Shown here: positions 2,423-17,398 of the stretch, piece after piece
Layout of the letters: each line of letters starts with the position of its first letter
How positions within the stretch are numbered: position 1 is the first letter of the stretch
Sequence record: NZ_CP072388.1
Origin: a plasmid
Direction: 5' to 3' (one strand)
Length of the DNA: 64,000 bases
Notes under the pieces: model-generated
Databases searched by the model: none
Told to the model about the DNA's origin: nothing
The model's input: only the letters and a program-made list of their open reading frames with translations
Translations under genes and position numbers: made by a program

Positions 2423-2692
2423 ATGCACTGCTACGACTGCACCCAGATGAGCCTGGACACCCCCGCCGTCGCAACCTGCTCCAGCTGCGGCGCCGCAACG
2501 TGCGGCCCCCATACGCTGGAGTCCGCAACTACGCAGACCGTCACTACGATGGGAAACCCCACGGCGCGTACCGTCAGGACGTTGACCTGCACGAGCTGCG
2601 CGCCGCGCGAGGCCACCTCGACCATCCACCGCGCCAGCGGGCGCGCGCACGCCGGACTCCACGAGCACGTCACCGTCGCTCGCACACACTGA
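2423..2692 (+). CDS. small Cys-rich zinc-ribbon protein (DUF2180-like)
   Basis: GGAGGA 5 nt upstream of ATG. MHCYDC...CSSCGAATCGPH...CTSCAPRE gives CxxC pairs. A paralog sits at 17399. Confidence 0.5.
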   Translation: MHCYDCTQMSLDTPAVATCSSCGAATCGPHTLESATTQTVTTMGNPTARTVRTLTCTSCAPREATSTIHRASGRAHAGLHEHVTVARTH

Positions 2693-2811
2693 CCCACCAG
2701 TGGCCCGGGAGAATGCGTGCCGGGCCGCGGGTCAGCCGACGATCCCCGGTTCGTCGTGGTGACGTCCCGCGCCACGACGAACCGGCCCACACCACCTGAG
2801 CGGGGAACACC

Positions 2812-4497
2812 ATGCACACCGCACCACGAGACCTGAAGCAACCAGCCGCCCCCGCGCCCGCAGCCCTGCGCATCACACCGCTGGGTGGCGTGGGGGAGAT
2901 CGGCCGGAACATGACGGTCTTCGAGCTCGACGGGCGCCTGCTCGTCATCGACTGCGGCGTGCTGTTCCCCGAGGAGCACCAGCCCGGCATCGACGTCATC
3001 CTCCCCGACTTCGCGAGCCTGGAGAACCGGCTCGACGACATCGAGGCCATCGTGCTCACCCACGGGCACGAGGACCACATCGGCGGGGTGCCCTACCTCC
3101 TGCGCCAGCGCCCGGACATCCCCGTCATCGGGTCCGAGCTGACGCTCGCCTTCGTCGCGGCCAAGCTGACCGAGCACCGCATCGACCCCGTGCTCACCCG
3201 CGTCGAGGCGGGCGACCGGCACACCGCCGGCCCCTTCGCCCTCGAGTTCATCGCGGTCAACCACTCGATCCCCGACGGGCTCGCCGTCGCGATCCGCACA
3301 CCCGCCGGGCTCGTGCTCCACACCGGCGACTTCCGCATGGACCAGTTCCCGCTCGACGGGCGCCTGACCGACCTGCGCGCGTTCGGCCGGCTCGGCGACG
3401 AAGGCGTGGACCTGCTGCTCGTGGACTCCACCAACGCCGAGGTCCCCGGCTTCACGATCTCCGAGGCCGAGCTCACGCCGGCGATCGACCAGGTCTTCAC
3501 CACCACGCCCGGGCGCGTCATCGTGTCCAGCTTCGCCAGCCACGTCCACCGCATCCAGCAGGTCCTGAACGCCTCGCACGCCCACGGACGCAAGGTCGCG
3601 TTCGTCGGCCGGTCCATGGTGCGCAACATGCGCATCGCGCGCGAGCTCGGCTACCTCGACGTCCCGCGCGGGCTCGTCGTCGACTACACCAAGACCCGCG
3701 GCATGGCACCGGAGAAGGTCACGCTCGTGTGCACCGGGTCTCAGGGCGAACCCCTGGCCGCGCTGGCCCGCATGGCGAACGAGTCCCACGAGGTCCGCGT
3801 CAGCGAGGGCGACACCGTCCTGCTCGCCAGCTCCCTCATCCCCGGCAACGAGAACGCCATCTACGGCATCATCAACAAGCTCACCGACCTCGGCGCCAAC
3901 GTCGTCCACAAGGGCAACGCCCGCGTGCACGTCTCCGGCCACGCCAGCGCCGGCGAGCTCGTCTACTGCTACAACATCCTGCGCCCCCGCAACGTCATGC
4001 CCGTGCACGGCGAACCCAAGCACCTGCGCGCCAACGGCGCCCTCGCCGAACGCACCGGCGTCGACCCCGACCACGTCCTGATCACCCGCGACGGCGTCGC
4101 CGTCGACCTCCTCGACGGCGTCGCCCGCATCGCCGGGCAGGTCCAGGCCGACCTCGTCTACGTCGACGGGCAGACCATCGGCCATGCCACCGAGGACACC
4201 CTGGCGGAGCGCCGCCAGCTCGCGGCAGCGGGCGTCGTCACCGTCCTCGCGCTCCTGCAGCCCGGCACGACCGAGCTCGCCGAACCGCTCGAGTACCTGC
4301 ACCGCGGCTCGGTGCACAGCCAGGACAGCCTCGACAAGGCCACCCGCGCCGTGCGCAAGGCACTCTCCGACGCCGCACACCGTAACCAGACCTCCGGCGA
4401 AGAGCTCGAAGAGCTCATCGCCACCACGGTCGCACGCTCCCTCGGCCGCGACGCCCGACGCGACCCCGTCGTCATCGCCTACGCCCTCGACGCCTAG
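2812..4497 (+). CDS. rnj: ribonuclease J (metallo-beta-lactamase/beta-CASP RNase)
   Basis: ITPLGGVGEIGRNMTVFE, HGHEDHIGGVPYLL (HxHxDH), GDFRMD and LLLVDSTNAE motifs. Full-length 561 aa. Confidence 0.9.
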   Translation: MHTAPRDLKQPAAPAPAALRITPLGGVGEIGRNMTVFELDGRLLVIDCGVLFPEEHQPGIDVILPDFASLENRLDDIEAIVLTHGHEDHIGGVPYLLRQRPDIPVIGSELTLAFVAAKLTEHRIDPVLTRVEAGDRHTAGPFALEFIAVNHSIPDGLAVAIRTPAGLVLHTGDFRMDQFPLDGRLTDLRAFGRLGDEGVDLLLVDSTNAEVPGFTISEAELTPAIDQVFTTTPGRVIVSSFASHVHRIQQVLNASHAHGRKVAFVGRSMVRNMRIARELGYLDVPRGLVVDYTKTRGMAPEKVTLVCTGSQGEPLAALARMANESHEVRVSEGDTVLLASSLIPGNENAIYGIINKLTDLGANVVHKGNARVHVSGHASAGELVYCYNILRPRNVMPVHGEPKHLRANGALAERTGVDPDHVLITRDGVAVDLLDGVARIAGQVQADLVYVDGQTIGHATEDTLAERRQLAAAGVVTVLALLQPGTTELAEPLEYLHRGSVHSQDSLDKATRAVRKALSDAAHRNQTSGEELEELIATTVARSLGRDARRDPVVIAYALDA

Positions 4498-4563
4498 ACG
4501 CAGACCCCCGCGACGAGCCGAGCGAACTCCCGACGGACCCTGCGCAGCTCGAGTTACAACCTC

Positions 4564-4935
4564 TCAGCCACCGGTGGTCTCCGTGAGCGAGGTTGCCAGC
4601 TGGCTGAGCGCGCCGGGGACCAGGGAGTAGTAGGCCCATCGGCCGCGTTGCTCGCGGTGGAGCAGGCCGGCGTCGACGAGGATCTTCAGGTGGTGGCTGA
4701 CGGTCGGCTGGGCGAGGCCGATCGGCTCGGTGAGGTCGCACACGCACGCCTCGCCGCCGTCGTGCGCGGCGACGATCGACAGCAGCTGCACGCGCGTCGG
4801 GTCGCCGAGCGCCTTGAAGATGCGGGCGAGGTCGCGCGCGGTCTCGGGGTCCGCGGCGTCGCGCACGAGCGGCGCGCAGCATCCGCCTGCCGCGGGAGCG
4901 TCCGGTGCCTCGAGGGTGAGCGCGGTGGTGGTCAT
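4564..4935 (-). CDS. arsR: ArsR/SmtB-family metalloid-responsive repressor
   Basis: HTH LGDPTRVQLLSIV...QPTVSHHLKIL. Carries both an N-terminal GGCC pair and an ACVCDL motif, i.e. Cys positions of both described As(III)-binding ArsR types. Confidence 0.85.
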   Translation of the reverse strand: MTTTALTLEAPDAPAAGGCCAPLVRDAADPETARDLARIFKALGDPTRVQLLSIVAAHDGGEACVCDLTEPIGLAQPTVSHHLKILVDAGLLHREQRGRWAYYSLVPGALSQLATSLTETTGG

Positions 4936-4952
4936 GCCCTCATCTTGCCATG

Positions 4953-5009
4953 TATCGAAGTTTGTAGATACGTTGGCGTCCTATTTGTTGATCGAAGTTC
5001 GTCGATGCG
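4953..5009. promoter_or_regulatory. divergent arsR / oxidoreductase promoter with two ~20-bp direct repeats (candidate ArsR operators)
   Basis: TATCGAAGTTTGTAGATACG (4953-4972) and GATCGAAGTTCGTCGATGCG (4990-5009). The second contains the palindrome CGAA-G-TTCG. AT-richer than surroundings. Confidence 0.3.
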
Positions 5010-5020
5010 AGGAGAGTGCG

Positions 5021-6436
5021 ATGAGCGTTGAGCGTGCGGACCTGCCGGTCGTGGTGATCGGTGCGGGCCCGGTGGGGCTGGCCGCGGCGGCGCACCTGCT
5101 GGAGCGCGGTCTGGAGCCGCTGGTCCTCGAGGCGGGTGACGGCCCGGGTGCGGCGATCGCGTCGTGGGGTCATGTGCGGTTGTTCTCCCCGTGGCGGTAC
5201 GACGTCGACGCCGCAGCCCGGCGCCTGCTGGACCCGACGGGGTGGGTCGAGCCGGACCCCGACACCCTGCCGACCGGTGGGGAGCTCGTCGGGCGCTACC
5301 TGGTCCCGCTCGCCGCGACGCCGCAGATCTCCGCGCGCCTGCGCACCGGGACGCGGGTCCTGGCGGTCGCGCGCGACGGCGCGGACAAGACGCGTTCCCT
5401 CGGGCGCGAGCGGCAGGGCTACCGGGTCCGCACCGTCGGCCCGGACGGGCAGGTTCAGGACGTGCTGGCGCGCGCGGTGATCGACGCGTCAGGCACGTTC
5501 TCGACGTCGAACCCGCTGGGTGTCTCCGGTCTCCCGGCGGCGGGCGAGACGGGGGCCGCAGGGTATGTCACCGGACCGCTTCCGGACGTCCTCGGGTCGC
5601 AGCGCGACCGGTTCGCCGGCCGGGACACGCTCGTCGTCGGGATGGGGCACTCCGCGGCGAACACGCTGCTGGCCCTCGTCGAGCTCTCCGAGGCCGAGCC
5701 GGGCACCACGATCACCTGGGCGATCCGCGGCGGGTCCGCGCGGCGCCTGTTCGGCGGCGGCTCCGACGACGAGCTTCCCGCCCGCGGGCTGCTCGGCACG
5801 CGCCTGCGGGCCGCCGTGGAGGCTGGGCGCCTGACCCTGCTCACCCGGGTCTCGATCGAGCGCCTCGTCCCGGGCGGGGACACCGTGCAGGTGCTGGGGA
5901 CCGCCCGTGACGGGGCGCTGAACCTCGACGTCCACCAGATCGTCAACGCGACCGGGTTCCGCCCGGACCTCGACATGCTGCGCGAGGTGCGCCTGGACCT
6001 GGACCCGGTCGTGGAGGCGCCCACGGCGCTGGCCCCGCTCATCGACCCGAACCAGCACTCGTGCGGCACGGTGCCCCCGCACGGGGAGCAGGTGCTGTCC
6101 CACCCGGACGACGGGTTCTACCTCGCGGGCATGAAGTCCTACGGCCGCGCGCCGACGTTCCTGCTCGCCACGGGGTATGAGCAGGTGCGCTCGATCGCCG
6201 CAGCGCTGGCCGGGGACCGGACCGCGGCCGACGCGGTCGAGCTGAACCTGCCCGCGACCGGCGTCTGCTCGACCGATCTGGCCCTGGAGGCCGACGGCGC
6301 GAGCGCGGGCGGGTCGTGCTGCGGAACCGCGCCGGCCGAGCCGCAGCTGGTCACCCTCGGTGTCGGGGCGCCGGCCGGTGTCGGGTTCGCGACCGGCGTC
6401 GTGCACGGCCGGTCGGGCGACGGCCAGGACGCGTGA
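5021..6436 (+). CDS. FAD/NAD(P)-binding oxidoreductase (ars-island associated)
   Basis: GGAGAG RBS. Rossmann motif VVVIGAGPVGLAAAAHLLERGLEPLVLE and a second dinucleotide motif LVVGMGHSAANTL. Cys-rich C-terminus GGSCCG. Confidence 0.75.
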   Translation: MSVERADLPVVVIGAGPVGLAAAAHLLERGLEPLVLEAGDGPGAAIASWGHVRLFSPWRYDVDAAARRLLDPTGWVEPDPDTLPTGGELVGRYLVPLAATPQISARLRTGTRVLAVARDGADKTRSLGRERQGYRVRTVGPDGQVQDVLARAVIDASGTFSTSNPLGVSGLPAAGETGAAGYVTGPLPDVLGSQRDRFAGRDTLVVGMGHSAANTLLALVELSEAEPGTTITWAIRGGSARRLFGGGSDDELPARGLLGTRLRAAVEAGRLTLLTRVSIERLVPGGDTVQVLGTARDGALNLDVHQIVNATGFRPDLDMLREVRLDLDPVVEAPTALAPLIDPNQHSCGTVPPHGEQVLSHPDDGFYLAGMKSYGRAPTFLLATGYEQVRSIAAALAGDRTAADAVELNLPATGVCSTDLALEADGASAGGSCCGTAPAEPQLVTLGVGAPAGVGFATGVVHGRSGDGQDA

Positions 6437-6939
6437 GTCTGACCCTGCGGATCGCGACCCCCGCCGACATGGCGGGGGTCGCGCGCATCTACGACCACTA
6501 CGTGACGACGTCGACCGCGACGTTCGAGCTCACCCCACCGGGCGAGACCGTGTGGGCGGACAAGCTCGTGGCCCTGCAGGGTGCGGGCTGGCCGTTCCTG
6601 GTCGCCGACCTCGACGGCGCCGTGTCCGGGTTCGCCTACGTGGGCCCGTGGCGCCCGCGCCCGGCCTACGCCCACACGGTCGAGGACACGATCTACCTCG
6701 ACCTCGCAGCGACCGGGCGCGGGATCGGGACCCGGCTGCTCGACCAGGTGCTCACCGACGCCGCAGCGGCCGGCGCACGAGAGGTGATCGCGGTCATCGC
6801 CGACGGCGACACCGCCGCATCACTCGCCCTGCACCGTCGCGCCGGGTTCACCGACGCCGGGCGCCTGGAACGCGTGGGCCGCAAGTTCGACCGGTGGCTG
6901 GGCACGACCCTGCTGCAGAAGTCCCTGCCCCTCCCGTAA
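6433..6939 (+). CDS. GNAT N-acetyltransferase of the phosphinothricin-acetyltransferase family (ArsN1-like)
   Basis: GTG start overlaps the upstream stop. IYDHYVTTSTATFEL...GFAYVGPWRPRPAYAHTVE...GRGIGTRLL matches PAT/Bar-family signature regions. Confidence 0.75.
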   Translation: MSLTLRIATPADMAGVARIYDHYVTTSTATFELTPPGETVWADKLVALQGAGWPFLVADLDGAVSGFAYVGPWRPRPAYAHTVEDTIYLDLAATGRGIGTRLLDQVLTDAAAAGAREVIAVIADGDTAASLALHRRAGFTDAGRLERVGRKFDRWLGTTLLQKSLPLP

Positions 6940-6961
6940 CCGCCCTGCGGGCACGGCAAAC

Positions 6962-7033
6962 ATAGATCGTGCTCTATCTGTCATCCGGGCTTCCGACCTC
7001 GTTCACCACACGTTCACATAGACCGCGTTCTAT
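6962..7033. promoter_or_regulatory. pstS promoter region: PHO-box-like 11-nt direct repeats plus two copies of palindrome ATAGA-N6-TCTAT
   Basis: GTTCACCACAC/GTTCACATAGA at 7001-7022 (two GTTCAC units 11 nt apart). ATAGATCGTGCTCTAT (6962-6977) and ATAGACCGCGTTCTAT (7018-7033). Confidence 0.4.
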
Positions 7034-7085
7034 CGATCGTGTTGGTGGATGCGGGCGGGCGAAGGTCCCGCCCCGACGAGACGGG

Positions 7086-8069
7086 ATGACTTACGTGTTC
7101 AGACTTCCGCAGCGCACCGCTGTCGTGATCGGCGCGACGGGGCTGGTGCTCACGCTCGCCGCGTGTGGTGGCCAGAGCCAGGGAGCGACCGGCGATGGCG
7201 AGACATCGGGTGGCGGGCTCAGCGGGGAGGTCGTCATCGACGGCTCCTCGACGGTCGAGCCGCTGAGCTCGGCGGCGGCCACGTTGTTCCGCGACGAGGA
7301 GCCGGGTATCAACGTCACGGTCGCCACGTCGGGCACCGGTGGCGGGTTCGAGCGGTTCTGCGCCGGGGAGACCGACATCTCCGACGCCTCGCGTCCGATC
7401 AAGGACGAGGAGATCGCGGCGTGCGAGGACAACGGTGTGGAATTCACCGAGATCGTCATCGCCAACGACGGCCTGTCGGTGGTGGTGAACCCGGAGAACG
7501 ACTGGCTGGAGTGCATCACGACCGAGCAGCTCGCGACCATCTGGGGCCCAGACTCCGAGGGCACGGTGACCTCCTGGAGCCAGGTCGACCCGGAGTTCCC
7601 GGACGAGGCGCTCGCGCTGTACGGGGCGGGCACGGACTCGGGCACGTTCGACTACTTCACCGAGGCGATCAACGGCGAGGAGGGCGCGATCCGCACGGAC
7701 TACACCCCGTCGGAGGACGACAACCTCACGGTGCAGGGCGTCTCTGGCGCGGTCGGCGCGATGGGGTTCTTCGGCCTGAGCTACGCCGAGGAGAACGCCG
7801 ACTCGATCAAGCTCCTCGCCGTGGACAACGGTGACGGGTGCGTCGTCCCGTCCAAGGAGACGGTGCAGGACGGCACGTACTCGCCGCTGGGCCGCCCGCT
7901 GTTCATCTACGTCAACAACGCGAAGTACGCCGAGAACGAGGCGCTGCGTTCGTTCGTCGACTTCTACCTCGCCAACGAGGAGGAGATCGCCGCGGACGCG
8001 CTGTTCATCGACCTGACGGACGAGCAGCAGCAGACCGCGGCGGACGAGCTCGCGAGCCTGGTCGGCTGA
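7086..8069 (+). CDS. pstS: phosphate ABC transporter substrate-binding lipoprotein
   Basis: Signal peptide plus lipobox LTLAAC. VIDGSSTVEPL, TSGTGGGFERFC and LSYAEEN motifs of PstS. Confidence 0.9.
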   Translation: MTYVFRLPQRTAVVIGATGLVLTLAACGGQSQGATGDGETSGGGLSGEVVIDGSSTVEPLSSAAATLFRDEEPGINVTVATSGTGGGFERFCAGETDISDASRPIKDEEIAACEDNGVEFTEIVIANDGLSVVVNPENDWLECITTEQLATIWGPDSEGTVTSWSQVDPEFPDEALALYGAGTDSGTFDYFTEAINGEEGAIRTDYTPSEDDNLTVQGVSGAVGAMGFFGLSYAEENADSIKLLAVDNGDGCVVPSKETVQDGTYSPLGRPLFIYVNNAKYAENEALRSFVDFYLANEEEIAADALFIDLTDEQQQTAADELASLVG

Positions 8070-8080
8070 CCGGCGCCTCG

Positions 8081-9055
8081 ATGAGCACCCCTCGTTCCAC
8101 GGTGGCCGGTCCGGTGCGTGCGCCGGGCCGGCCACCGGCCCTGACCGAGCACGGCCCGGCCATCACCCGCCGGCGCGCGCGCCGCGGTGAGGCGCTGGTG
8201 CGCCTCCTGCTGCGCCTGGCGGCCTGGTTGTCGATCCTGATCACGGTCGGCATCGTGATCTCGCTGCTGACACCCGCACTGCAGTTCTTCGCCGAGGTCT
8301 CCGTCGTGGAGTTCCTCACCGGGACTCGCTGGGCGCCGCAGTTCGCCGACCCGACCTTCGGGGTCCTGCCCCTGGTCACGGCCACGGCCTGGACGACGCT
8401 GATCGCGCTGGCGGTGGCGGTCCCGTTCGGGCTGGGCGCGGCGATCTACCTTGCCGAGTACGCGCGCCCCCGCGCCCGCAAGATCCTCAAGCCGATCCTC
8501 GAGCTGCTGGCCGGCGTGCCGACCGTGGTGTTCGGCTTCTTCGCCCTGTCGTTCGTCGCCCCGACGGTGCTGCGGGACTGGCTGAGCATCGAGGTCGGCA
8601 CGTTCTCGATCCTGGCCGCCGGGCTGGTCATGGGCGTGATGATCATCCCGACCGTCGCCTCCCTGTCCGAGGACGCCATGTCCGCGGTGCCCGCCGCACT
8701 GCGCCAGGGCTCGGCCGCGCTGGGCGCCAACCGGATGCAGACCTCGCTGCGCGTGGTCTTCCCCGCGGCGCTGTCCGGGATCGTCGCCGCGGTGGTGCTC
8801 GGCATCTCCCGTGCGATCGGGGAGACGATGATTGTCGCGATCGCTGCCGGCGCCCGGCCTCAGATGGTCACCGACCCGACCATGGAGGGCGCCACCATGA
8901 CCGGGTTCATCGCCCGCATGGCCCTGGGCGACGCCCGGGTCGGGTCGCTGGAGTACAACACCCTCTTCGCCGTGGGCCTGCTGCTGTTCGCCCTGACCCT
9001 CGTGGTCAACGCGATCAGCATCCAGCTCGTGCGCCGCTTCCGCCAGGAGTACTGA
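8081..9055 (+). CDS. pstC: phosphate ABC transporter permease
   Basis: Six TM segments. EYARPRARKILKPILELLAGVPTVVFGFFAL matches the PstC EAA-loop region. Confidence 0.9.
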   Translation: MSTPRSTVAGPVRAPGRPPALTEHGPAITRRRARRGEALVRLLLRLAAWLSILITVGIVISLLTPALQFFAEVSVVEFLTGTRWAPQFADPTFGVLPLVTATAWTTLIALAVAVPFGLGAAIYLAEYARPRARKILKPILELLAGVPTVVFGFFALSFVAPTVLRDWLSIEVGTFSILAAGLVMGVMIIPTVASLSEDAMSAVPAALRQGSAALGANRMQTSLRVVFPAALSGIVAAVVLGISRAIGETMIVAIAAGARPQMVTDPTMEGATMTGFIARMALGDARVGSLEYNTLFAVGLLLFALTLVVNAISIQLVRRFRQEY

Positions 9056-9963
9056 TGGCCCTGCACACCCCCGCCGTGGCGACCCAGCAAGCTCGCCTGG
9101 CCACCGGTAACCGGTCCAAGGAACGCACCCCGACCTCGGTGCTCTTCCTGGCCCTGCTGTGGATCTCGCTGTTCGTCGCGTTCGCCACCCTCGTCGCGCT
9201 GATCGTCACGACGATCGCCCAGGGCGCCGACCGGCTCGACTCGCGCCTGTTCACCGAGTACCCGTCCTCGCGGCCCGAGGAGGCCGGGGCGCGCCCCGCG
9301 ATCCTGGGGTCGCTGTGGGTGATCGGCACCACCGCCGCCCTCGCGATCCCGCTCGGGGTCGCCGCGGCCGTGCACCTGGAGGAGTTCGCCGACCGGCGCC
9401 ACTGGTTCAACCGGTTCATCGAGCTCAACATCCAGAACCTGTCGGCCATCCCGTCGATCATCTACGGCATGCTCGCGATCGGGACCCTGGCCTTGATCGG
9501 CGTCGGGAACAAGAACATCGTGATCGGCGGCGCGCTCGCCCTGGCGCTGCTCATCCTGCCCGTCATCATCATCGCCACCCGTGAGGCGTTGCGCGCCGTC
9601 CCGCGCGAGCTGCGCCACGGGTCGCTCGCTCTAGGCGCGACCGAGCTGCAGACCACCTGGCGCATCACGTTGCCCGCCGCGGTCCCGGGCATCGCCACCG
9701 GCACGATCCTGGCCCTGTCCCGCGCGCTCGGCGAGGCCGCGCCGCTGCTGCTGCTGGGTGCCCTGGTGTTCATCTCCTTCGACCCCAACGGGCTGCTCTC
9801 GGGCTTCACCACCATGCCGATCCAGATCTATGGCTGGACCAACGCACCCCAGGCCGGGTTCCACGAGCTCGCGGCCGCGACCTCGATCCTGCTCGTGGGG
9901 ATCCTGCTGGCCATGAACGCGCTGGCCATCATCATCCGCAACCGCTACCAGCGCCGCTGGTGA
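9055..9963 (+). CDS. pstA: phosphate ABC transporter permease
   Basis: ATG overlaps the pstC stop (TGATG). Permease topology with an EAA-like loop. Confidence 0.9.
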
Positions 9964-9986
9964 GACCACCCGAGGACCACCCCACC

Positions 9987-10868
9987 ATGACCACCACCGG
10001 CACCTCCGCGAAGGCCACCATGTCCTCCAGCACCCAGATCTCCACTCGCCCCGCCCACAGCGAGCACCGCGAGATCCCTGCCGAGCCCAACCCGGTCCTG
10101 CAGTGCGAGGACGTCGACGTCTACTACGGCTCCTTCCGCGCCGTGCGCGACGTGTCCCTGGCGTTCGGGCACAACGAGATCACGGCCCTCATCGGCCCGT
10201 CCGGGTGCGGGAAGTCCACCATCCTGCGCTCCTTGAACCGGATGAACGACCTGGTCGAAGGCGCGCGCGTGACCGGGTCCGTACGGTACTGGGGCCAGGA
10301 CATGTATGGCGCCGGCGTGGACCCGATCGAGGTGCGCCGCCGCATCGGGATGGTCTTTCAAAAGCCCAACCCGTTCCCGAAGTCGATCTACGACAACATC
10401 GCCTACGGCCCGAGAGTCACGGGGATGAAGGTCGCGTCGATGGACGACCACGTCGAGCAGGCACTGACCCGCGCCGCCCTGTGGGACGAGGTCAAGGACA
10501 AGCTCAAGCAGTCCGCCTACGGCCTGTCCGGTGGGCAGCAGCAGCGCCTGTGCATCGCCCGCACGATCGCCGTCGAGCCCGACGTGATCCTCATGGACGA
10601 GCCGTGCGCGTCGCTCGACCCCATCGCGACCATGCGCATCGAGACCCTCATGACCGAGCTGCGCGACCTGTACACGATCGTCATCGTCACCCACAACATG
10701 CAGCAGGCGGCCCGCGTCGCCGACCGCACCGCGTTCTTCACCGCCGCCGTCGACGAGACCACCGGTGACCGCACGGGCGAGCTCGTCGAGTTCGACCACA
10801 CCGCGAAGATCTTCGAGAACCCGGCCGACCAGCGCACCGAGGACTACATCACCGGACGCTTCGGCTGA
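9987..10868 (+). CDS. pstB: phosphate ABC transporter ATP-binding protein
   Basis: Walker [10 protein letters not shown], signature [13 protein letters not shown], Walker B ILMDEP. A start at 9960 (GTG) is also possible. Confidence 0.9.
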
Positions 10869-10888
10869 CCACCCACCAGGAGCCGACG

Positions 10889-11644
10889 ATGACCGTCACC
10901 CTTCCCCCGCGCGGTCCCAGCACCCAGCGCGAGGCCACCGCGCTCGGGCCCCAGACCGTGCGCGCCGTCCTCGTCGACCCCACGTTCGACCCTCGCGAAG
11001 GGCTCGTGACCGCGATGCGCGAGCAAGGCATCACGCTCGAGCCCGTGAGCGACCCGCTGCGCGGCCTCGCCCGCGCCTCGCTCGCACACACCCGCGCCGT
11101 CGTGGTCAGCGCAGCGGTGGCCGACCCGATGCTCAGCGCCTTCGTCGCCGTGGTGCGCGACGAGCTCGACCTGCCCGTCCTGCTCGCCCACCGGGCCGGC
11201 GACGCCGACCGGCTCGGCGGCGCGGTGCTCGCCGGGGCCCGGCCCGTCGTCGACCAGCCCTACCAGCCCGCGCGCATGGCCGCGACCCTGCTCGGCCTCG
11301 CCGGGAACCAGGAACCAGGGATCGTGCGCGTCGGATCGCTCGAGCTCGACCCGGACGCCTACGACGCACGCCTGCACGGACGCGGCATCGACCTGAGCAC
11401 GCTGGAGTTCGAGGTCCTGCACGAGCTGGCGACCCACCCCGACCACGTGATCCCGCGCGAGCGGTTCACCCACCGCTACTGGCCGCGTTCACCCGACCCG
11501 GACGGAACCCTGGCCGCGGTCATCTCCCGCCTGCGCCGCAAGCTCGACGCCCATCACCTCGCCGGCGCCATCCACACCGTGCGCGGGATCGGCTTTCGCC
11601 TGGAGAGCGCCGTCCTCGCCGCATACTCACACCCAAACCCATAG
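10889..11644 (+). CDS. OmpR/PhoB-type winged-helix DNA-binding protein with atypical (pseudo-)receiver N-terminus
   Basis: C-terminal trans_reg_C-like domain (LELDPDAYDARLHGRGIDLSTLEFEVLHELA...TVRGIGFRLE). The N-terminal 130 aa is receiver-like but lacks the acidic DD pocket. Lies directly after pstB. Confidence 0.65.
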   Translation: MTVTLPPRGPSTQREATALGPQTVRAVLVDPTFDPREGLVTAMREQGITLEPVSDPLRGLARASLAHTRAVVVSAAVADPMLSAFVAVVRDELDLPVLLAHRAGDADRLGGAVLAGARPVVDQPYQPARMAATLLGLAGNQEPGIVRVGSLELDPDAYDARLHGRGIDLSTLEFEVLHELATHPDHVIPRERFTHRYWPRSPDPDGTLAAVISRLRRKLDAHHLAGAIHTVRGIGFRLESAVLAAYSHPNP

Positions 11645-11656
11645 ACGTCGATCTAT
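11641..11656. promoter_or_regulatory. third copy of palindrome ATAGA-N6-TCTAT
   Basis: ATAGACGTCGATCTAT overlaps the stop codon of the 10889 regulator and lies upstream of the 11666 ORF. Confidence 0.3.
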
Positions 11657-11665
11657 CATGATGGG

Positions 11666-12079
11666 GTGGCGAGCCGACTCCTCGACCGGGACGTGAGCGC
11701 GACCGTCGCCGTCGCGGCGTCGGCCGAGCAGACGTGGCGTGCGCTCCTGGTCGTCCTGGGGATCGACGCCGAGGTACCGGGTGTGCCGGCGGCCTACGGG
11801 GCCATGGCCGGGCGTGTGCGCGACGCTGTGCCGGGGGACGGCTTGGTGGTGCGTGGCCGTCTGGGCGCGCGCACGTACGAGTTCTCCGCCCATCTCGTCG
11901 CCCGCGGTGTGTGGTGCGACCTGACGGTGGACGCAGCCCCGGACGACCTTGTCGGGGCAGTAGAGGGCGGGCGCTGGCGGCACCACCTGGCCCGGCGTCG
12001 GGTCCGGCAGCTCGTGCGAGATCTGGTGACCGATGTCGCGCGCACGGCGGGTAGCGGCGCCGGTCCGGTCTCGCGCTGA
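11666..12079 (+). CDS. hypothetical protein (possible SRPBCC-fold)
   Basis: GTG-start ORF of 137 aa. Family assignment is weak. Confidence 0.35.
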   Translation: MASRLLDRDVSATVAVAASAEQTWRALLVVLGIDAEVPGVPAAYGAMAGRVRDAVPGDGLVVRGRLGARTYEFSAHLVARGVWCDLTVDAAPDDLVGAVEGGRWRHHLARRRVRQLVRDLVTDVARTAGSGAGPVSR

Positions 12080-12093
12080 GAGGCTGCCCGGCT

Positions 12094-13005
12094 TCAGGGG
12101 GTGATCTCGCGTACGAGGTCGTGCACGCGCGCGGTGATGTCGTCGACGATGCGCACGACGTCCTGAAGTGGGCGACCGGAAGGGTCCTCGACGGTCCAGT
12201 CGACGTAGCGCCGGCCAGGGAAGACCGGGCAGGCGTCGCCGCAGCCCATGGTGACCACGACGCCTGAGGCGCGCACGACCTCGTCGGTGAGGGGGCGGGG
12301 AAACTCGGTCAGCGCGTCGAGGCCGCGTCGCGCGAGCTCGGTGCGCACGACGGGGTCGATCGAGGCGGCGGGCACCGACCCGGCAGTGCGCACGCGCACC
12401 TGGTCGCCGGCGATCGAGCGCAGCACCGCGGCGGCGATCTGGGACCTGCCGGCGTTGCGCACGCACACGAACAGCACGTCCTGGCGCGGCGCGAGGCCGT
12501 GCCGGTCGAGGGTGAGGGCGGCGAGCCGGTCGGCGGCGAAGCGCGCGGTGAGCGCGGGCAGGTGGCGGCGCACGGTGGCGCGGGCGGCGAGCAGGTCGTA
12601 GCTGTCGGTGACGAACCGGGCGACGGTCTCGGGCGCGAGGACGTCGGTGTAGGTGGCGCTCAGGTCGGCGGTGATCCGTCGCAGGAGGCGGTCGTGGTCC
12701 CCGGGTGGGACGTGCGCGGCGCCGGACCGGTCCGGCGCGCCGATCGCGGCGCCGCCGAATCGGGCCAGGGCGTCCGGGGTCGGGCGGTATCGCGCGTCGG
12801 GGCCGTGTCCGACGCGGACCAGGACACCGACGTCGCTCATGGCCTGCAGGTGCGCGCCGACGGCGTCGAGGGCGCCACCGGGTCCGGCCAGGTCTCGGGC
12901 GCGGGGCTGTCCACTCGGGTCGGTGATGATCAGGGCCAGGAGCCGCAACCTGTCGGGATCGGCCATCGTGGCGGCCTGGGCGGCGCGCAGGTCGTCCGGG
13001 CTCAT
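12094..13005 (-). CDS. arsC: fusion: degenerate ArsR-like HTH + linker domain + LMW-PTP-family arsenate reductase
   Basis: C-terminal CX5R P-loop VLFVCVRNAGRSQIAA and a distal Cys (VVTMGCGDACP) typical of thioredoxin-coupled ArsC. The N-terminal HTH-like region lacks the CVC motif. Confidence 0.75.
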   Translation of the reverse strand: MSPDDLRAAQAATMADPDRLRLLALIITDPSGQPRARDLAGPGGALDAVGAHLQAMSDVGVLVRVGHGPDARYRPTPDALARFGGAAIGAPDRSGAAHVPPGDHDRLLRRITADLSATYTDVLAPETVARFVTDSYDLLAARATVRRHLPALTARFAADRLAALTLDRHGLAPRQDVLFVCVRNAGRSQIAAAVLRSIAGDQVRVRTAGSVPAASIDPVVRTELARRGLDALTEFPRPLTDEVVRASGVVVTMGCGDACPVFPGRRYVDWTVEDPSGRPLQDVVRIVDDITARVHDLVREITP

Positions 13006-13024
13006 CGGGGCACGCCCCGCCCGG

Positions 13025-13381
13025 TCAGCGCAGCAGGTCCGCGATCGCGTGCAGACGGACGGGGACGATGGAGTACCAGACCTCGCGTCCCACGGGGTCG
13101 CGGGTGACGATGCCCGCCTCGGTCATCACCTTCAGGTGGTGGGACACGGTGGGCTGGCGCAGGCCGAGCGCGCGGGTCAGGTCCGCGACGCGGGCACGGG
13201 CATCGGCGCTGTGGTGGATCAGGCTCAGCAGCTGTAGGCGGGTGGGGTCGGAGACGACCCGCAGCAGCGTGGCGGTGTCCTCGGCCTGCTCGCGGCTCAG
13301 CGTCGTGCGCAGGGCGGGCCCCGGCGCGCGTTCGGCCCGCCCCTGCAGGGGCGGGGACGACTCGCTTGCCGGGGCGCTCAC
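13025..13381 (-). CDS. arsR: ArsR-family regulator (cysteine-free)
   Basis: LQLLSLI...QPTVSHHLKVM HTH. No Cys anywhere in the protein. Confidence 0.8.
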   Translation of the reverse strand: MSAPASESSPPLQGRAERAPGPALRTTLSREQAEDTATLLRVVSDPTRLQLLSLIHHSADARARVADLTRALGLRQPTVSHHLKVMTEAGIVTRDPVGREVWYSIVPVRLHAIADLLR

Positions 13382-13403
13382 CCATCGAGGATAGCCGTCC
13401 GCG

Positions 13404-13844
13404 TCAGGCGGCCGGGGTGGGCGCGACCGGCGTGACGCCGAGCTCGCCCAGCAGGGTCAAGACACGGCCGCGGATCTCGTCGCGAATGGGGCGCACAGAC
13501 TCGATGCCCTGCCCTGCCGGGTCGGCGAGCTCCCAGTCCTCGTAGCGCTTGCCGGGGAAGATCGGGCAGGCGTCGCCGCAGCCCATGGTGATGACGACGT
13601 CGGACGCCTGGACGGCCTCGGTGGTGAGGACCTTGGGCTGCTCGGCGCGGATGTCGATGCCCTCTTCGAGCATGGCCTCGACGGCGACGGGGTTGATCTG
13701 GTCCGCCGGGGCCGAGCCGGCGGAGCGGACCTCGACGGCGCCGCCGGACAGTGCGCGAAGGTAGCCGGCGGCCATCTGGGATCGGCCGGCGTTGTGGACG
13801 CAGACGAACAGGGCTGACGGCTTCGCGGTGGTGGTGTCGGTCAT
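13404..13844 (-). CDS. arsC: arsenate reductase, LMW-PTP family (thioredoxin-coupled)
   Basis: AGGAGAA RBS. P-loop ALFVCVHNAGRSQMAAG. Downstream Cys pair ITMGCGDACP. Confidence 0.85.
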   Translation of the reverse strand: MTDTTTAKPSALFVCVHNAGRSQMAAGYLRALSGGAVEVRSAGSAPADQINPVAVEAMLEEGIDIRAEQPKVLTTEAVQASDVVITMGCGDACPIFPGKRYEDWELADPAGQGIESVRPIRDEIRGRVLTLLGELGVTPVAPTPAA

Positions 13845-13870
13845 GGCGTTCTCCTGGTTGCTGGTGGATC

Positions 13871-14881
13871 TCAGGCGATGGTCAGGGTCAGGTCGGGCAG
13901 CAGGTCGGCGAGCAGGCCCCGTACTCGCTCGTCGAGGTCGTCGCGGATCGCGGCGACCCCTGCGGGGGAGGCCAGGGCGGGGTCGCCGACGAGCCAGTCC
14001 TCGTACCTCTTGCCGGGCAGCACGGGGCAGACGTCGCCGCAGCCCATGGTGATGACGACATCGGCGGCGCGGACGGCGTCGTCGGTCAGGGGCTTGGGGA
14101 AGGCTTCGTCGTCGTCGGTGCCGAGCTCGGTCAGGGCCTCGAGCACCCCGTCGTGGATGTCGGCGGCAGGCGTGGACCCGGCGGAGCGGACCACGACGCG
14201 GTTCCCGGCGTAGTGCTGCAGCAGGGCGGCGGCGAGCTGGGAGCGTCCGGCGTTGGCGACGCAGACGAACAGCACTTGCGGTCGGGCGTCGCCGGAGCGG
14301 GTGAGGTCGGCCAGTCTCTGGCGGGCGAACCGTGCGGTGAGCGGCACCAGGTGGGCCGAGACCTTCGCCGAGCGGGCCAGGTCGGTGTAGGACTCGCGGA
14401 CCACGCGTTGCACGACGTCGAACCGGACGTCGGGAAACGCTCCGGCGAGGTCCTCGGCGAGGTGGTCGAGCGCCGGGTCGACGTCGTCCAGCCCCGCCAG
14501 GACGGCCGCACCGTGTGCAGAGCCCAGCGCGGCCGGGGCGAACGAGTCGAGCAGCGTCGTCACCGCGGCCTTGTAACCGCCGGTGATGCGGTACCAGACC
14601 CAGGTGCCGCGCCGTTCGGAGGTCAGCACGCCGACGTCGCGCAGCACCTTGAGGTGGTGCGACACGGTGGGCTGTGACACGTCGGTGAGGGCGGCGAGGT
14701 CGCACACGCACGCCTCCCCGGCGGGTGCGGTCGCGATGAAGGACAGCATCCGTAGCCGCAGCGGCTCGGCGAGGGCCTTGAGCGTGGTGGCGACGGCGCC
14801 GGCGACCTCGGTGCCGATCGCGTGGGACTCGATCTGCGGGGCGCAGTCCGGGTCCGTGACAGTCAAGGGTGTGGTGGTCAT
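13871..14881 (-). CDS. tri-domain fusion: ArsR (EACVCDL metalloid site) + linker domain + LMW-PTP arsenate reductase
   Basis: N-terminal LRLRMLSFIA...EACVCDL...QPTVSHHLKVL. C-terminal VLFVCVANAGRSQLAA...ITMGCGDVCP. ATG overlaps the acr3 stop (ATGA). Confidence 0.8.
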   Translation of the reverse strand: MTTTPLTVTDPDCAPQIESHAIGTEVAGAVATTLKALAEPLRLRMLSFIATAPAGEACVCDLAALTDVSQPTVSHHLKVLRDVGVLTSERRGTWVWYRITGGYKAAVTTLLDSFAPAALGSAHGAAVLAGLDDVDPALDHLAEDLAGAFPDVRFDVVQRVVRESYTDLARSAKVSAHLVPLTARFARQRLADLTRSGDARPQVLFVCVANAGRSQLAAALLQHYAGNRVVVRSAGSTPAADIHDGVLEALTELGTDDDEAFPKPLTDDAVRAADVVITMGCGDVCPVLPGKRYEDWLVGDPALASPAGVAAIRDDLDERVRGLLADLLPDLTLTIA

Positions 14882-15984
14882 GACCTCACCTCTTCCAGCT
14901 CGGGTGTTCGAGTCGTGGGGGCGTAGGGGTCGACGGCGAACCAGCGGCGCGCGAGCCACAGGGAGACGTAGACGAGGCCGACGAGGACGGGGACCTCGAT
15001 GAGCGGGCCGACGACGCCGGCCAGGGCCTGACCTGACGTGGCGCCGAACGTGCCGATGGCGACGGCGATCGCGAGCTCGAAGTTGTTGCCCGCAGCGGTG
15101 AAGGCGAGCGTCGTGGAGCGTGCGTAACCGAGCGCGAGCATCTTGCCGACGACGATGCCGATGCCCCACATGGCGGCGAAGTACACCAGCAGCGGCAGCG
15201 CGATGCGGGCCACGTCGAGCGGGTGGGAGGCGACGGCCTCGCCCTGCAGGGCGAAGAGCAGCACGATCGTGAACAGCAGTCCGTACAGCGCCCACGGCCC
15301 GACCTTCGGCAGGAACCGGTCCTCGTACCAGGTGCGGCCCTTGGCGCGTTCGCCGACCAGGCGGGAGGCGAACCCGGCGGCCAGCGGGACACCGAGGAAG
15401 ACGAGGACGTTGAGCGCGATCTGCCCGACCGAGACGTCGAGGCCCTGGGTGTCCAGACCGAGCCATCCGGGCAGCACGGTGAGGTAGAAGTAGCCGAGCA
15501 GCGAGAACGCGACGACCTGGAAGGCGGAGTTGATCGCGACCAGCACCGTGGCCGCCTCCCGATCCCCGCACGCGAGGTCGTTCCAGATCACGACCATCGC
15601 GATGCAGCGGGCCAGGCCGACGATGATCAGCCCTGTGCGGTACTCGGGCAGGTCGGGCAGGAAGGCCCAGGCAAGGGCGAACATCAGCGCGGGACCGACC
15701 AGCCAGTTCAGTACCAGCGAGGAGACCAGGAGCCTCTTGTCGCCGGTGACCGCGCCGACGCGGTCGTAGCGGACCTTGGCCAGGACCGGGTACATCATGA
15801 CGAGCAGGCCGAGCGCGATCGGGACCGAGATCCCGCCGACCTCCATCGCCGTGAGCACCTCGGACAGGGCGGGGACGAACCGGCCCAGGACGAGACCGGC
15901 GACCATCGCGAGGCCGATCCACAGCGGCAGCCACCGGTCCAGCGTGGACAGGCGCCCGCGCGTGGCGGTCGTGGGGTCGCTCAC
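14878..15984 (-). CDS. acr3: ACR3-family arsenite efflux permease
   Basis: ten predicted TM helices (hydropathy estimate by eye). Conserved ACR3 regions LNWLVGPALMFALAW and IVGLARCIAMVVIWNDLACGD (catalytic Cys region). GTG start overlaps the trxA stop (GTGA). Confidence 0.9.
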   Translation of the reverse strand: MSDPTTATRGRLSTLDRWLPLWIGLAMVAGLVLGRFVPALSEVLTAMEVGGISVPIALGLLVMMYPVLAKVRYDRVGAVTGDKRLLVSSLVLNWLVGPALMFALAWAFLPDLPEYRTGLIIVGLARCIAMVVIWNDLACGDREAATVLVAINSAFQVVAFSLLGYFYLTVLPGWLGLDTQGLDVSVGQIALNVLVFLGVPLAAGFASRLVGERAKGRTWYEDRFLPKVGPWALYGLLFTIVLLFALQGEAVASHPLDVARIALPLLVYFAAMWGIGIVVGKMLALGYARSTTLAFTAAGNNFELAIAVAIGTFGATSGQALAGVVGPLIEVPVLVGLVYVSLWLARRWFAVDPYAPTTRTPELEEVRS

Positions 15985-16304
15985 GCGAGGACCTCCTCGA
16001 TCTCGGCGACCAGCGCCTGCTTCGGGCGTGCGCCGACGACGGACTTCACCAGCTGGCCGTCGGAGTAGAAGTTCAGCGTCGGGATCGACACGACGCCCGC
16101 CGCCGCCACGGTCTTCGGGTTGGCGTCGGCGTCGAGCTTGGCGATCGTGAGCCTGCCCTCGTACTCCTGCGCGAGCTCGGCCAGGATCGGGGCGACCTGG
16201 CGGCACGGGCCGCACCACGTGGCCCAGATATCCACCAGCACAGGCACTTCGGAGGCCAGGACCACCTCGTCGAAGGTGTCGTCGGTGACGGTCACGGTGC
16301 TCAT
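15981..16304 (-). CDS. trxA: thioredoxin
   Basis: WCGPC active site, 108 aa, GGAGGAG RBS. ATG overlaps the trxB stop (ATGA). Confidence 0.9.
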
Positions 16305-17323
16305 CGGATCTCCTCCAGCGCCAGGGGCAGCTCGTCGGGGTTCGGGGTCTCGGGCGTGCCGGCCAGGTTCGCAAGGCCGGCGGCGTCGGCGAGCTCGGTG
16401 AGGTAGGCCTGGGCGTCCAGGGCGGCGGAGGCGCCGGTCCCGGCGGCCGTGATGGCCTGCCGGTAGGTGTGGTCGACCACGTCGCCGGCGGCGAACACGC
16501 CCGACAGGTTGGTGCGGGTGGAGCGGCCCTGGACCAGGATGTAACCGTCGTCGTCGAGGTCGACCTGGCCCTTGACCAGGTCGGTGCGCGGCTCGTGGCC
16601 GACGGCGACGAACAGGCCCGTCGCGGGCAGCTCGCGCTCGGCGCCGGTCACGGTGTCGCGCAGCGTCAGGCCCTCGACCTTGTTCTCTCCGCCGATCGCG
16701 GCGACCTCGCTGTTCCAGGCGAACTCGATCTTCGGGTCGTTCAGGGCGCGGTCGGCCATGATCTTCGACGCACGCAGCTCCCCACGGCGGTGCACGACGG
16801 TGACCTTGGACGCGAACCGGGTGAGGAACGTGGCCTCCTCCATCGCGGAGTCCCCGCCGCCGACGACCGCGATGTGCTGGTCGCGGAAGAAGAACCCGTC
16901 GCAGGTGCCGCACCAGGACACCCCGCGCCCGGACAGCCGCTCCTCCTCGGGCAGGCCGAGCTTGCGGTAGGCGGACCCGGTGGTCAGGATCACCGCCCGG
17001 GCCCGGTAGGTGTCGCCGCTGCCGGTGTGGAGCGTCTTGACCGGGCGGTCCAGCTCGAGGGACGTCACGTCGTCCCACACGATGCGCGCCCCGAACTTCT
17101 CGGCCTGGGCCCGCATGGCGTCCATGAGCTCAGGGCCTTGGATGCCGTCCGCGAACCCGGGGAAGTTCTCCACCTCGGTCGTGGTCATCAGCGCGCCACC
17201 GGCGGTGACCGAGCCGGCGACCACCACCGGCGCCAGGCCGGCACGGGCGGCGTAGATCGCCGCGGTGTACCCGGCGGGGCCCGACCCCACGATCACGATC
17301 TCCTGAACCTCTTGCATCGACAT
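16301..17323 (-). CDS. trxB: thioredoxin-disulfide reductase
   Basis: [18 protein letters not shown] motif, redox CGTCDG (CxxC), NADPH motif [10 protein letters not shown]. Confidence 0.9.
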
Positions 17324-17398
17324 GCCTCTATGTTGACACCGGTCGATGCAGCGCGCAAGGTGGATATCGATGAACGTCGATGCAACAGGAAGTGGATC

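Follow-up and report, generated by a model that had tools for sequence, protein, structure and literature searches.

An arsenic-island phosphate-transporter promoter of actinobacteria likely combines ArsR-type palindromic operators with phased PhoB/PhoP-type repeats

In this work, we analyzed a 64,000-nucleotide stretch of the plasmid sequence record NZ_CP072388.1 (hereafter the window; 70.6% G+C), whose positions 1-20000 represent an arsenic island according to Pfam/NCBIfam profile searches of the window proteins. We focused on the control region of a phosphate transporter operon, pstSCAB, embedded in this island. Comparison with related loci makes it fairly likely that the 72 bp preceding pstS (6962-7033) serve as a dual-input region, where an ArsR repressor would gate and a PhoB-type activator would drive the arsenic-island pstSCAB. 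This model builds on the observed sites and their conservation, on the phyletic patterns and on the protein folds, and it is from them that we infer the binding partners, the direction of regulation and the inducer. The first-pass annotation of the same DNA had noticed the palindrome ATAGA-N6-TCTAT and the GTTCAC repeats in this region, but took the palindrome for a candidate operator of an OmpR-type regulator encoded at the end of the operon and left the repeats to PhoP. The comparative data presented below suggest that this site-to-protein assignment should probably be reversed. The control region and the pstS leader comprise the following elements:

6962..6977, no strand: Pal1, predicted distal palindromic operator ATAGATCGTGCTCTAT of the pstS control region, an exact match (arm identity 0.90 vs. 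about 0.5 in the spacers)
6979..6984, plus strand: DR1, TGTCAT, predicted distal PhoB/PhoP-type half-site that abuts Pal1
7001..7011, plus strand: DR2, 11-nt repeat unit GTTCACCACAC (column identity 0.86)
7012..7022, plus strand: DR3, 11-nt repeat unit GTTCACATAGA, with a 5-nt overlap with the left arm of Pal2
7018..7033, no strand: Pal2, predicted proximal palindromic operator ATAGACCGCGTTCTAT, adjoining the presumed core promoter (arm identity 0.92)
7053..7073, plus strand: GC-rich hairpin GGGCGGG-cgaaggt-CCCGCCC in the pstS 5′ leader, between Pal2 and the ribosome-binding site

The exact palindrome occurs three times (6962-6977, 7018-7033 and 11641-11656) and nowhere else in the window, and not a single match was obtained in 100 dinucleotide-preserving shuffles (0 expected vs. 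3 seen), thus bearing out the earlier statement that three copies are unlikely to have arisen by chance. The Pal2 16-mer is letter-identical in Cellulosimicrobium, Isoptericola and Williamsia. When anchored on Pal2, the control regions of ten loci (two from Cellulosimicrobium, two from Aeromicrobium, three from Streptomyces and one each from Isoptericola, Williamsia and Cellulomonas) and of an eleventh, L031, align without gaps from Pal1 to Pal2, with the palindromes 56 bp apart. Relative to Pal2 (0..15), Pal1 lies at −56..−41, with −56 found in 10 of 11 ArsR-linked loci, DR1 is kept as (G/T)TTCAT or TGTCAT at −39..−34 (in 9 loci, column identity 0.80), CGTTCACC occupies −18..−11 and a GTTCAC-like unit −6..−1. 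Among nine non-redundant loci, the column identity reaches 0.90-0.92 in the palindrome arms and 0.78-0.86 in the three repeats vs. 0.42-0.57 in the spacers and flanks. Such conservation of the arms across loci argues that the palindrome is a genuine regulatory site, as had been supposed.

The repeats begin at −39, −17 and −6, that is, in an 11-bp register, DR3 being 11 bp from DR2 and 33 bp from DR1. DR2 reads CGTTCACC in five of the six non-Streptomyces loci tabulated and CGTTCATC in Isoptericola. Phased repeats were found in all 15 pstS promoters examined that were not disrupted by insertions. The direct repeat noted earlier as PHO-box-like, GTTCACCACACGTTCAC at 7001-7017, whose second unit abuts and overlaps Pal2, does fit the consensus of the Streptomyces PhoP boxes, which are built of 11-nt direct repeat units G(G/T)TCAYYYR(G/C)G (Sola-Landa et al. 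2005, 2008, PMC2275107). Both the 11-bp register and the match to the core G(G/T)TCAY are those of PhoP units, and two 11-nt units with this core, the minimum for a PHO box, are present at 7001-7022 (GTTCACCACAC and GTTCACATAGA). Just as in Streptomyces, the GTTCAC cores are exactly 11 bp apart, lie just 5′ of pstS near −35 and are accompanied by extra weaker units in phase. Positions 1-7 of DR2 fit the PhoP repeat consensus (PMC2275107), whereas positions 8-11 of the units are off it; moreover, unlike the Streptomyces PhoP boxes, the repeats here are flanked and overlapped by repressor-type palindromes, and the same operon encodes a non-phosphorylatable PhoB-like protein. We conclude that the repeats at 7001-7022 are PHO-box-like, a predicted site that PhoP, encoded outside the window, may use. 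A second PHO-box-like repeat, GTTCACGATCTGATCAT (one mismatch), is present at 43458-43474 on the minus strand, between a DUF6668 gene and the next gene.

A search of 6850-7150 for a sigma-70-like −35/−10 pair was negative, as would be expected of an activator-dependent promoter; likewise, neither a consensus sigma-70 promoter nor an intrinsic terminator was recognized at 6850-7150 or 11450-12150. Downstream of Pal2, a leader hairpin is located at the same position in all ten loci examined (the window, L001 and L005-L011 among them), each time with a different sequence, so that the structure is conserved and the sequence is not. A search of Rfam returned no family match to the pstS leader or to the rest of 6800-12200 at E up to 1.

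The genes that follow this region are listed below:

7086..8069, plus strand: pstS, phosphate-binding lipoprotein (Pfam PBP_like_2) with the lipobox LAAC; start ATG 7086 or the conserved GTG 7095
8081..9055, plus strand: pstC, permease; start ATG 8081 or GTG 8198; TIGR02138, 263 bits vs. cut-off 196
9055..9963, plus strand: pstA, permease; TIGR00974, 244 bits vs. cut-off 193
9987..10868, plus strand: pstB, ATPase; TIGR00972, 385 bits vs. cut-off 343; start taken from the orthologous gene call
10889..11644, plus strand: OmpR/PhoB-type regulator lacking the phospho-acceptor Asp, a pseudo-receiver joined to a winged helix, with no cysteine; last gene of the pst operon

PstS scores 279 bits with TIGR02136 (cut-off 207) and thus falls in this subfamily, not in the TIGR00975 equivalog (33 bits vs. 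cut-off 205). Since all four components exceed the curated NCBIfam cut-offs, pstSCAB represents, as judged by these profiles, a bona fide complete Pst system, and the earlier observation of a full transporter set among arsenic genes is correct: all around the operon lie ArsR and Trx-type ArsC genes, together with those for Acr3, TrxR, an ArsN-like GNAT and an ArsO-like monooxygenase.

The regulator is 93% identical to a Cellulosimicrobium funkei protein, which assigns the DNA to this genus or a close relative. In Pfam, only Trans_reg_C matches it (E 3e-15) and Response_reg does not; its AlphaFold model (predicted local distance difference test, pLDDT, 83.5) nevertheless contains a full (beta-alpha)5 receiver in addition to the winged helix. 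The best Foldseek matches to the model are PrrA (E 1.5e-13 over 228 columns), PhoP, MtrA and VanR, followed by GlnR (8HIH) and the atypical regulators HP1043 (2HQR), RitR (5U8K) and CosR (8UVK); 1GXP and 5ED4 are also among the structural matches. By its model, the protein thus has the OmpR/PhoB fold. Alignments show that the phospho-acceptor Asp is replaced by S74, the conserved Thr by A100 and the conserved Lys by Q123, and that only D30, followed by Pro, is left of the acidic pair. At the acceptor position, the 11 module orthologues have S, A or N, to which wider representatives add G, C, H, T and V; the phospho-Asp is retained neither in any of these orthologues nor in the ~65 best full-length representatives from an exhaustive search of 1.84 billion. 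Judging from these residues, the receiver is non-phosphorylatable, in agreement with what the first-pass annotation had suspected. The protein is not a PhoB equivalog either (TIGR02154, 57 bits vs. cut-off 296), and no histidine kinase gene is found in the module at any locus; PhoU is not part of the module either.

The regulator family is compact (14 clusters at E up to 1e-30), and its hallmarks are a (D/E)-P-D motif after strand 1, Ser/Ala/Asn at the acceptor, Ala/Gly at the Thr position and the place after pstB: its genes lie directly 3′ of pstB at every locus with enough flank. The DNA-binding residues R214, R216, R232 and G233 are invariant in the alignment. Asp-less PhoB-like regulators also follow pstB in two loci unrelated to arsenic, L029, in a housekeeping neighbourhood of radA, disA and carD, and L030, with a chromate transporter and selenium genes. 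As far as gene neighbourhoods can tell, the family is dedicated to pst operons in general, not to arsenic islands.

The counterpart of this regulator in the module is an ArsR protein encoded on the opposite strand. Three proteins have to be considered here:

13025..13381, minus strand: module ArsR, 118 amino acids, cysteine-free, with the recognition helix LR-QPTVSHHLKVM; main candidate for palindrome binding
4564..4935, minus strand: canonical As(III)-type ArsR, 123 amino acids, with an N-terminal CC and a CVC motif; recognition helix A-QPTVSHHLKIL
12094..13005, minus strand: fusion protein of 303 amino acids, comprising a weak ArsR-like winged helix, a three-helix bundle and a thioredoxin-type arsenate reductase (ArsC1′-like); convergent with the pst operon

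The module ArsR has a winged helix–turn–helix (HTH) of the ArsR type (Pfam HTH_5, E 2e-12; NF033788, 75 bits vs. cut-off 55), and CgArsR (6J0E) is its closest match in the PDB. Its orthologues contain no cysteine at all in the window, Isoptericola, Williamsia, Aeromicrobium, Cellulomonas and two metagenome loci; the CVC position reads RVA, RVV or RVT in these proteins, and CVC/CVA is kept in the Streptomyces orthologues only. A species-level genome collection yielded eight relatives of this ArsR, seven of which (52-75% identity; Williamsia, two Aeromicrobium, Cellulomonas and three Streptomyces) adjoin pst genes; the eighth, with 34% identity, comes from a Rhizobiaceae metagenome-assembled genome and has no pst genes nearby. 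The regulator is present as well in six of the seven pst-linked loci, the seventh (L011) ending at the contig end. To these loci, we added Isoptericola and the second Cellulosimicrobium strain. Outside Streptomyces, pstSCAB and the regulator gene converge with arsR followed by the ArsC1′-type fusion, and in Streptomyces arsR lies 3′ of the regulator gene on the same strand.

The palindrome itself proved to be part of a wider class, AT(A/C/T)GA-N6-TC(A/G/T)AT, which is found at every ars promoter of the window. The relaxed pattern ATMGA-N6-TCKAT (at most one mismatch) gave nine matches in the window vs. 1.8 expected, and seven of these fall into the intergenic regions of ars or pst genes. Two pairs of related sites are located at ars promoters:

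4954..5006, no strand: related palindrome pair, ATCGAAGTTTGTAGAT at 4954 and ATCGAAGTTCGTCGAT at 4991, 37 bp apart, at the divergent arsR/flavoprotein promoter
17316..17381, no strand: related palindrome pair, ATCGACATGCCTCTAT at 17316 and ATCGATGAACGTCGAT at 17366, at the head of the minus-strand ars operon whose tail is the module ArsR

The second pair overlaps the TrxR start and a divergent promoter containing TTGACA, and both Isoptericola and strain BIT-GX5 keep ATCGACATGCYTCTAT at the head of the operon that contains ArsR. Over the window and the related loci (~235 kb), all 30 strict sites tabulated fall in ars/pst promoter regions vs. ~0.14 expected from base composition. Whenever the module ArsR gene possesses a separate promoter, a class site is present there (L006, L007 and L010; Aeromicrobium and Streptomyces are among the genera), and where it is the operon tail, the site stands at the operon head (17316 in the window; 13842 in Isoptericola L001).

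The paired arrangement seen at 4954/4991 recurs on plasmids and in other genera. The class is present in arsR promoters on plasmids of Rathayibacter, Paenarthrobacter aurescens (pTC2), Agreia, Clavibacter and Arthrobacter; four of the six actinobacterial plasmids examined have paired sites exactly 37 bp apart, and a fifth (Agreia) has a cluster of three. Canonical arsR divergent promoters in many Actinomycetota, both chromosomal and plasmid, carry two ATYGA-N6-TCRAT palindromes at exactly this distance (4954-5006 in the window; L006 19706-19758; L007 6567-6619; plasmids L013 5930-5982, L014 4330-4382, L017 3875-3927 and L018 2330-2382), which looks like a conserved ArsR operator pair; no published description of such a pair was found in the searchable literature. 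Inverted-repeat sites in ars promoters including that of arsR itself (4954/4991 and 17316/17366 in the window; L006 9970, L007 9931 and L010 9800; plasmids L013, L014 and L016-L018) are, to judge by their positions, the classic hallmark of an autoregulatory ArsR operator. A search of the literature for a published operator or footprint of these actinobacterial ArsR proteins was likewise negative.

The palindrome-bearing plasmids provide a means to tell apart the possible binders, because pst genes are absent from their examined stretches and no regulator orthologue was found on any plasmid in PLSDB, where the best matches (<38% identity) are ordinary response regulators. If the palindrome were the operator of the Asp-less regulator, bound as a head-to-head dimer, with the GTTCAC repeats acting as ordinary PhoP PHO boxes, the regulator gene and ATAGA-type palindromes would be expected together, and this is indeed so at every ArsR-linked pstS promoter. 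In addition, Pal3 (the third copy) overlaps the regulator stop codon, the repeats fit the PhoP repeat consensus, and half-sites spaced by 11 bp would suit two winged helices. At the same time, the class is found at plasmid arsR promoters in the absence of such a regulator; two loci possess pstSCAB and the regulator (L029, among radA, disA and carD, and L030, followed by a chromate transporter) but have no ArsR within 6 kb and no 5-6-5 palindrome in the pstS promoter, keeping the GTTCAC repeats at the 11-bp spacing; and OmpR/PhoB proteins in solved DNA complexes, such as 1GXP and 5ED4, are generally known to bind direct repeats head to tail. One more locus, L027, which has the arsR-downstream layout, shows covariation: its ArsR helix reads MT-QPAISHHLR in place of LR-QPTVSHHLKVM, and its promoter carries ATAAA-N6-TTTAT and ATAAG-N6-TTTAT, 55 bp apart, around a perfect GTTCACCGCCCGTTCACC. 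Here both palindrome arms are altered symmetrically along with ArsR, and the repeats and the regulator subtype are not. The palindrome thus tracks ArsR, and the repeats track the pst-encoded regulator. These patterns favour the palindrome as the ArsR operator and the repeats as the OmpR/PhoB-type site, leaving the opposite assignment, that of the first-pass annotation, decidedly improbable. The recognition helices are in line with this: the module ArsR clade always has LR-QPTVSHH(L/M/V)(K/R)VM and its pst promoters favour ATAGA, and the canonical clade has (A/S/G)-Q(P/S)T(V/I)SHH(L/M)K with promoters carrying ATCGA or ATTGA. Hybrid sites, e.g., ATAGA...TCGAT, are common, so one protein type must tolerate both half-sites, which fits a single operator class. 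The canonical ArsR (4564-4935), given its near-identical recognition helix, may cross-bind and cross-regulate the pst palindromes.

Two further explanations accept the palindromes as sites of an ArsR-type protein. One of them reserves the repeats for the global PhoP, the Asp-less regulator being a degenerate paralogue, a competitive PhoP antagonist or a protein with other targets. The GTTCAC core does fit the footprinted S. coelicolor PhoP consensus, and in Streptomyces sp. NPDC006385 (L010) the control region is common with the divergent phoX, a classical Pho-regulon gene; furthermore, in S. lividans, ars-linked binding-protein and arsR genes, whose homology to the module is not established, are induced only by arsenate together with low phosphate (PMC4943196). 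We nonetheless regard this explanation as unlikely, because a bystander would hardly be under clear purifying selection with invariant DNA-binding residues and stay next to pstB everywhere, and because DR2 is least consensus-like precisely in the Streptomyces loci, where PhoP is best known. The other explanation assigns the palindromes to the fusion protein 12094-13005 as an arsenate sensor, alone or as a heterodimer with the Cys-free ArsR, which would account for the arsenic response of a system with a Cys-less ArsR. The fusion accompanies the module in all non-Streptomyces loci and adjoins the regulator gene in nine loci with sufficient flank; it matches Pfam PF21234 and LMWPc as well as NF046112, its residues 98-300 match C. 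glutamicum ArsC1′ (PDB 3T38, E 1e-55) with an intact CX5R + GCGDAC reductase domain, and residues 12-81 form a weak ArsR-type HTH (ArsR_Rv2640c). This HTH match is, however, far under the cut-off (22 bits vs. 155), the putative recognition helix DAVGAHLQAM is unlike the QPTVSHHLK of ArsR at palindrome-bearing promoters, and Streptomyces L009 has palindromes but no fusion gene within 10 kb, so that we find such a role in binding scarcely probable. As for sensing as such, the fusion, always co-transcribed with the Cys-less ArsR, could by its domain composition be an arsenate sensor.

Several points weigh against the dual-input model that we prefer. The comparative tests rest on a few related loci, namely, two without ArsR, one whose palindromes are altered and one (L033) that combines a divergent ArsR with the lack of a recognizable palindrome. 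Every locus with ATAGA-type sites at pstS also has the OmpR-type regulator, so co-occurrence alone cannot exclude its binding to them; moreover, some atypical OmpR-family proteins, e.g., HP1043, have been reported as inverted-repeat binders. The repeats fit the PhoP consensus and may, by their sequence, be pure PhoP sites, with the Asp-less regulator in another role. The 56-bp spacing (~5.3 helical turns) sets the two operators on different faces of the helix. Lastly, as the module ArsR outside Streptomyces contains no cysteine, none of the three described As(III) thiolate sites (CVC in helix 3, N-terminal CC + C, C-terminal cysteines) can exist in it, and the predicted Cys-less repressor leaves an arsenite-triggered release unexplained. 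A metagenome scan for further pstS promoters gave only copies broken by insertion or contig ends. In L032, a DDE transposase/insertion sequence element (601-2193) lies directly 5′ of pstS, and both palindromes and repeats are gone. In three metagenome contigs (L020, at 3881-6910, as well as L019 and L021), an open reading frame (ORF) of ~1009 amino acids stands in place of the pst genes, with the first 52 regulator codons truncated.

In the dual-input model, an ArsR/SmtB-family repressor dimer would occupy each palindrome, the likeliest repressor being the Cys-free ArsR 13025-13381, the constant companion of the module. The three GTTCA-type half-sites (6979, 7001 and 7012), in 11-bp phase, would form an array for an OmpR/PhoB-type activator, i.e., the operon's own kinase-independent regulator 10889-11644 and/or PhoP. 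Since Pal2 shares positions with the proximal repeat and the presumed core promoter, and Pal1 is immediately adjacent to the distal repeat, binding of the repressor and the activator would be mutually exclusive. Upon repressor release, the activator could bind the phased repeats and recruit RNA polymerase. As the activator gene is the last in the operon and the receiver is non-phosphorylatable, derepression would amplify itself independently of PhoR, PhoU and phosphate starvation. In this way, when arsenate competes with phosphate, a presumably phosphate-selective high-affinity importer would be switched on whatever the phosphate status. An even more far-reaching proposal, which we judge quite unlikely, is that the seven-gene module (pstSCAB, the Asp-less PhoB-like activator, the Cys-free ArsR and the ArsR-like/ArsC1′ fusion) constitutes a self-contained kinase-free circuit deciding between arsenate and phosphate, where the fusion or its reaction product would release the Cys-less ArsR and the pseudo-receiver would read the state of PstB, thereby replacing PhoU and PhoR.

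The third copy of the palindrome lies at the other end of the operon, where two features were recognized:

11641..11656, no strand: Pal3, ATAGACGTCGATCTAT, covering the regulator stop codon TAG (11642-11644)
11693..12079, plus strand: small hypothetical gene starting at the conserved GTG 11693 (longest ORF from 11666), with G+C content at third codon positions (GC3) of 0.83

That Pal3 coincides with the regulator stop codon had been noted before and is exact, the TAG lying inside 11641-11656. The idea that the three copies bracket the operon did not hold: two of them belong to the pstS promoter and the third precedes a gene confined to Cellulosimicrobium, so the bracketing arises fortuitously from the order of the genes. 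The right arm of Pal3 together with CAT forms a −10-like TATCAT (11654-11659). The second Cellulosimicrobium strain has Pal3 as well; we saw no such site in other genera, where the intervening gene is absent and the regulator gene runs directly into the convergent ArsC1′ fusion gene. The small ORF is 53% identical between the two Cellulosimicrobium strains vs. 85-97% for the neighbouring genes, its conservation starts at GTG 11693, with an indel in the 36 nt after Pal3, and the product has no Pfam/NCBIfam match even at E up to 1. Most probably, Pal3 is the operator of a third regulated promoter, which would serve this small gene, and its overlap with the stop codon is, from this comparison, incidental. 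We also considered all three palindromes as one bracketing unit, a looping or termination device, and rejected this, because Pal3 occurs only with the extra small gene in Cellulosimicrobium, whereas Isoptericola, Williamsia, Aeromicrobium, Cellulomonas and Streptomyces lack it.

The left part of the arsenic island comprises a SulP transporter, RNase J and then the minus-strand ArsR (4564-4935), divergent from the flavoprotein gene. The ArsN-like GNAT, pstSCAB, the Trans_reg_C-only regulator and the small ORF without a family follow in the middle. The long minus-strand ars operon encodes TrxR, thioredoxin, Acr3, an ArsR-ArsC fusion, ArsC, the second ArsR (13025-13381) and the 303-residue ArsC-like fusion (12094-13005), and the gene for the ArsO-like monooxygenase comes after it. 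The GNAT acetyltransferase (6316-6939), directly 5′ of Pal1, resembles arsinothricin/phosphinothricin N-acetyltransferases, and it stays under all curated NCBIfam cut-offs (ArsN1b, 123 bits vs. cut-off 210). Beyond the island, there are two adjacent tyrosine recombinase genes (20427-24151, minus strand), a gene with an ATP-dependent DNA ligase domain (24185-25063) and a gene for a TraG/VirD4-type coupling protein (35392-37143, minus strand); the recombinases and the coupling protein show that the arsenic island abuts an integrative, conjugative-type element. On the Isoptericola jiangsuensis chromosome (L001), the module begins 73 bp downstream of a tRNA-Thr gene (5826-5901), with no other ars genes around, which suggests that the seven genes move as a unit. 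In L010, a PhoX alkaline phosphatase gene (498-2606) is divergent from the module pstS and shares its control region, which ties the module of this species to the classical Pho regulon. A link to the Streptomyces bisenarsan (arseno-organic) cluster, whose genes for an ABC transporter and ArsR respond to arsenate combined with low phosphate (PMC4943196), was tried and rejected: the flanks of L009 and L010 contain no genes for PEP-mutase, AroA or polyketide synthase, and homology is not established.

The best-studied parallel is Agrobacterium tumefaciens 5A, where ArsR1 represses pstS1 and phoB1 of the ars island by binding two sites between them, and arsenite induces them (PMC7965956; Kang et al. 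2012, 2016; Rawle et al. 2021). Just as there, a second pst operon and a PhoB-type regulator gene are found in an arsenic island, and ArsR has two sites in the pstS control region, bound in A. tumefaciens and predicted here. In A. tumefaciens 5A, arsenic switches on pst independently of the main Pho/Pst locus, which we propose for the actinobacterial operon by analogy. Unlike the present locus, that of PhoB1 carries phoU, and the ArsR1 motifs are not 12-2-12 palindromes; the features that distinguish the present module, as read from sequence, are the lack of the phospho-Asp and of PhoU/kinase genes, the 5-6-5 palindromes at a fixed 56 bp and the Cys-free ArsR. The regulator resembles atypical OmpR-family proteins (HP1043/HsrA, ChxR, RitR, JadR1, GlnR and CosR), where a receiver is joined to a winged helix and phosphotransfer is impossible or unneeded, but specific sequence kinship to them is not detectable, PrrA being the best PDB sequence match (27% identity); as a kind, Asp-less atypical OmpR-family regulators are already known. 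Similarly, the module ArsR shares the ArsR/SmtB winged helix with the canonical R773 ArsR, AfArsR and CgArsR, and the class sites at its own promoter or operon head fit autoregulation, but in contrast to these proteins it has no cysteine whatsoever outside Streptomyces. To our knowledge, Agrobacterium is the only case where ArsR has been shown to control a second pst operon. For Proteobacteria, both the occurrence of pst/pho genes within arsenic islands and the regulation of these genes by ArsR have been described (PMC3834237, with no mention of Actinobacteria; PMC7965956). In the searchable literature, we found no description of the actinobacterial module, of a palindrome/repeat/palindrome promoter, of a pst-dedicated Asp-less PhoB-like family or of a Cys-free ArsR.

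The two regulators of the module each lack the chemistry that defines their families, one being a response regulator without the aspartate and the other an ArsR without cysteines. Arsenate gets into cells via phosphate transporters, so that the control of phosphate uptake represents half of arsenic resistance. The data presented here indicate an independent actinobacterial solution to this task, spread over at least six genera and located on mobile DNA. Binding assays can start from defined, predicted operators of 16 bp and repeats of 11 bp; the control region is a candidate for an arsenic-responsive promoter in biosensors based on high-GC Gram-positive bacteria, and the Asp-less regulators are candidates for a family of PhoB-like activators that would serve pst operons independently of a kinase.

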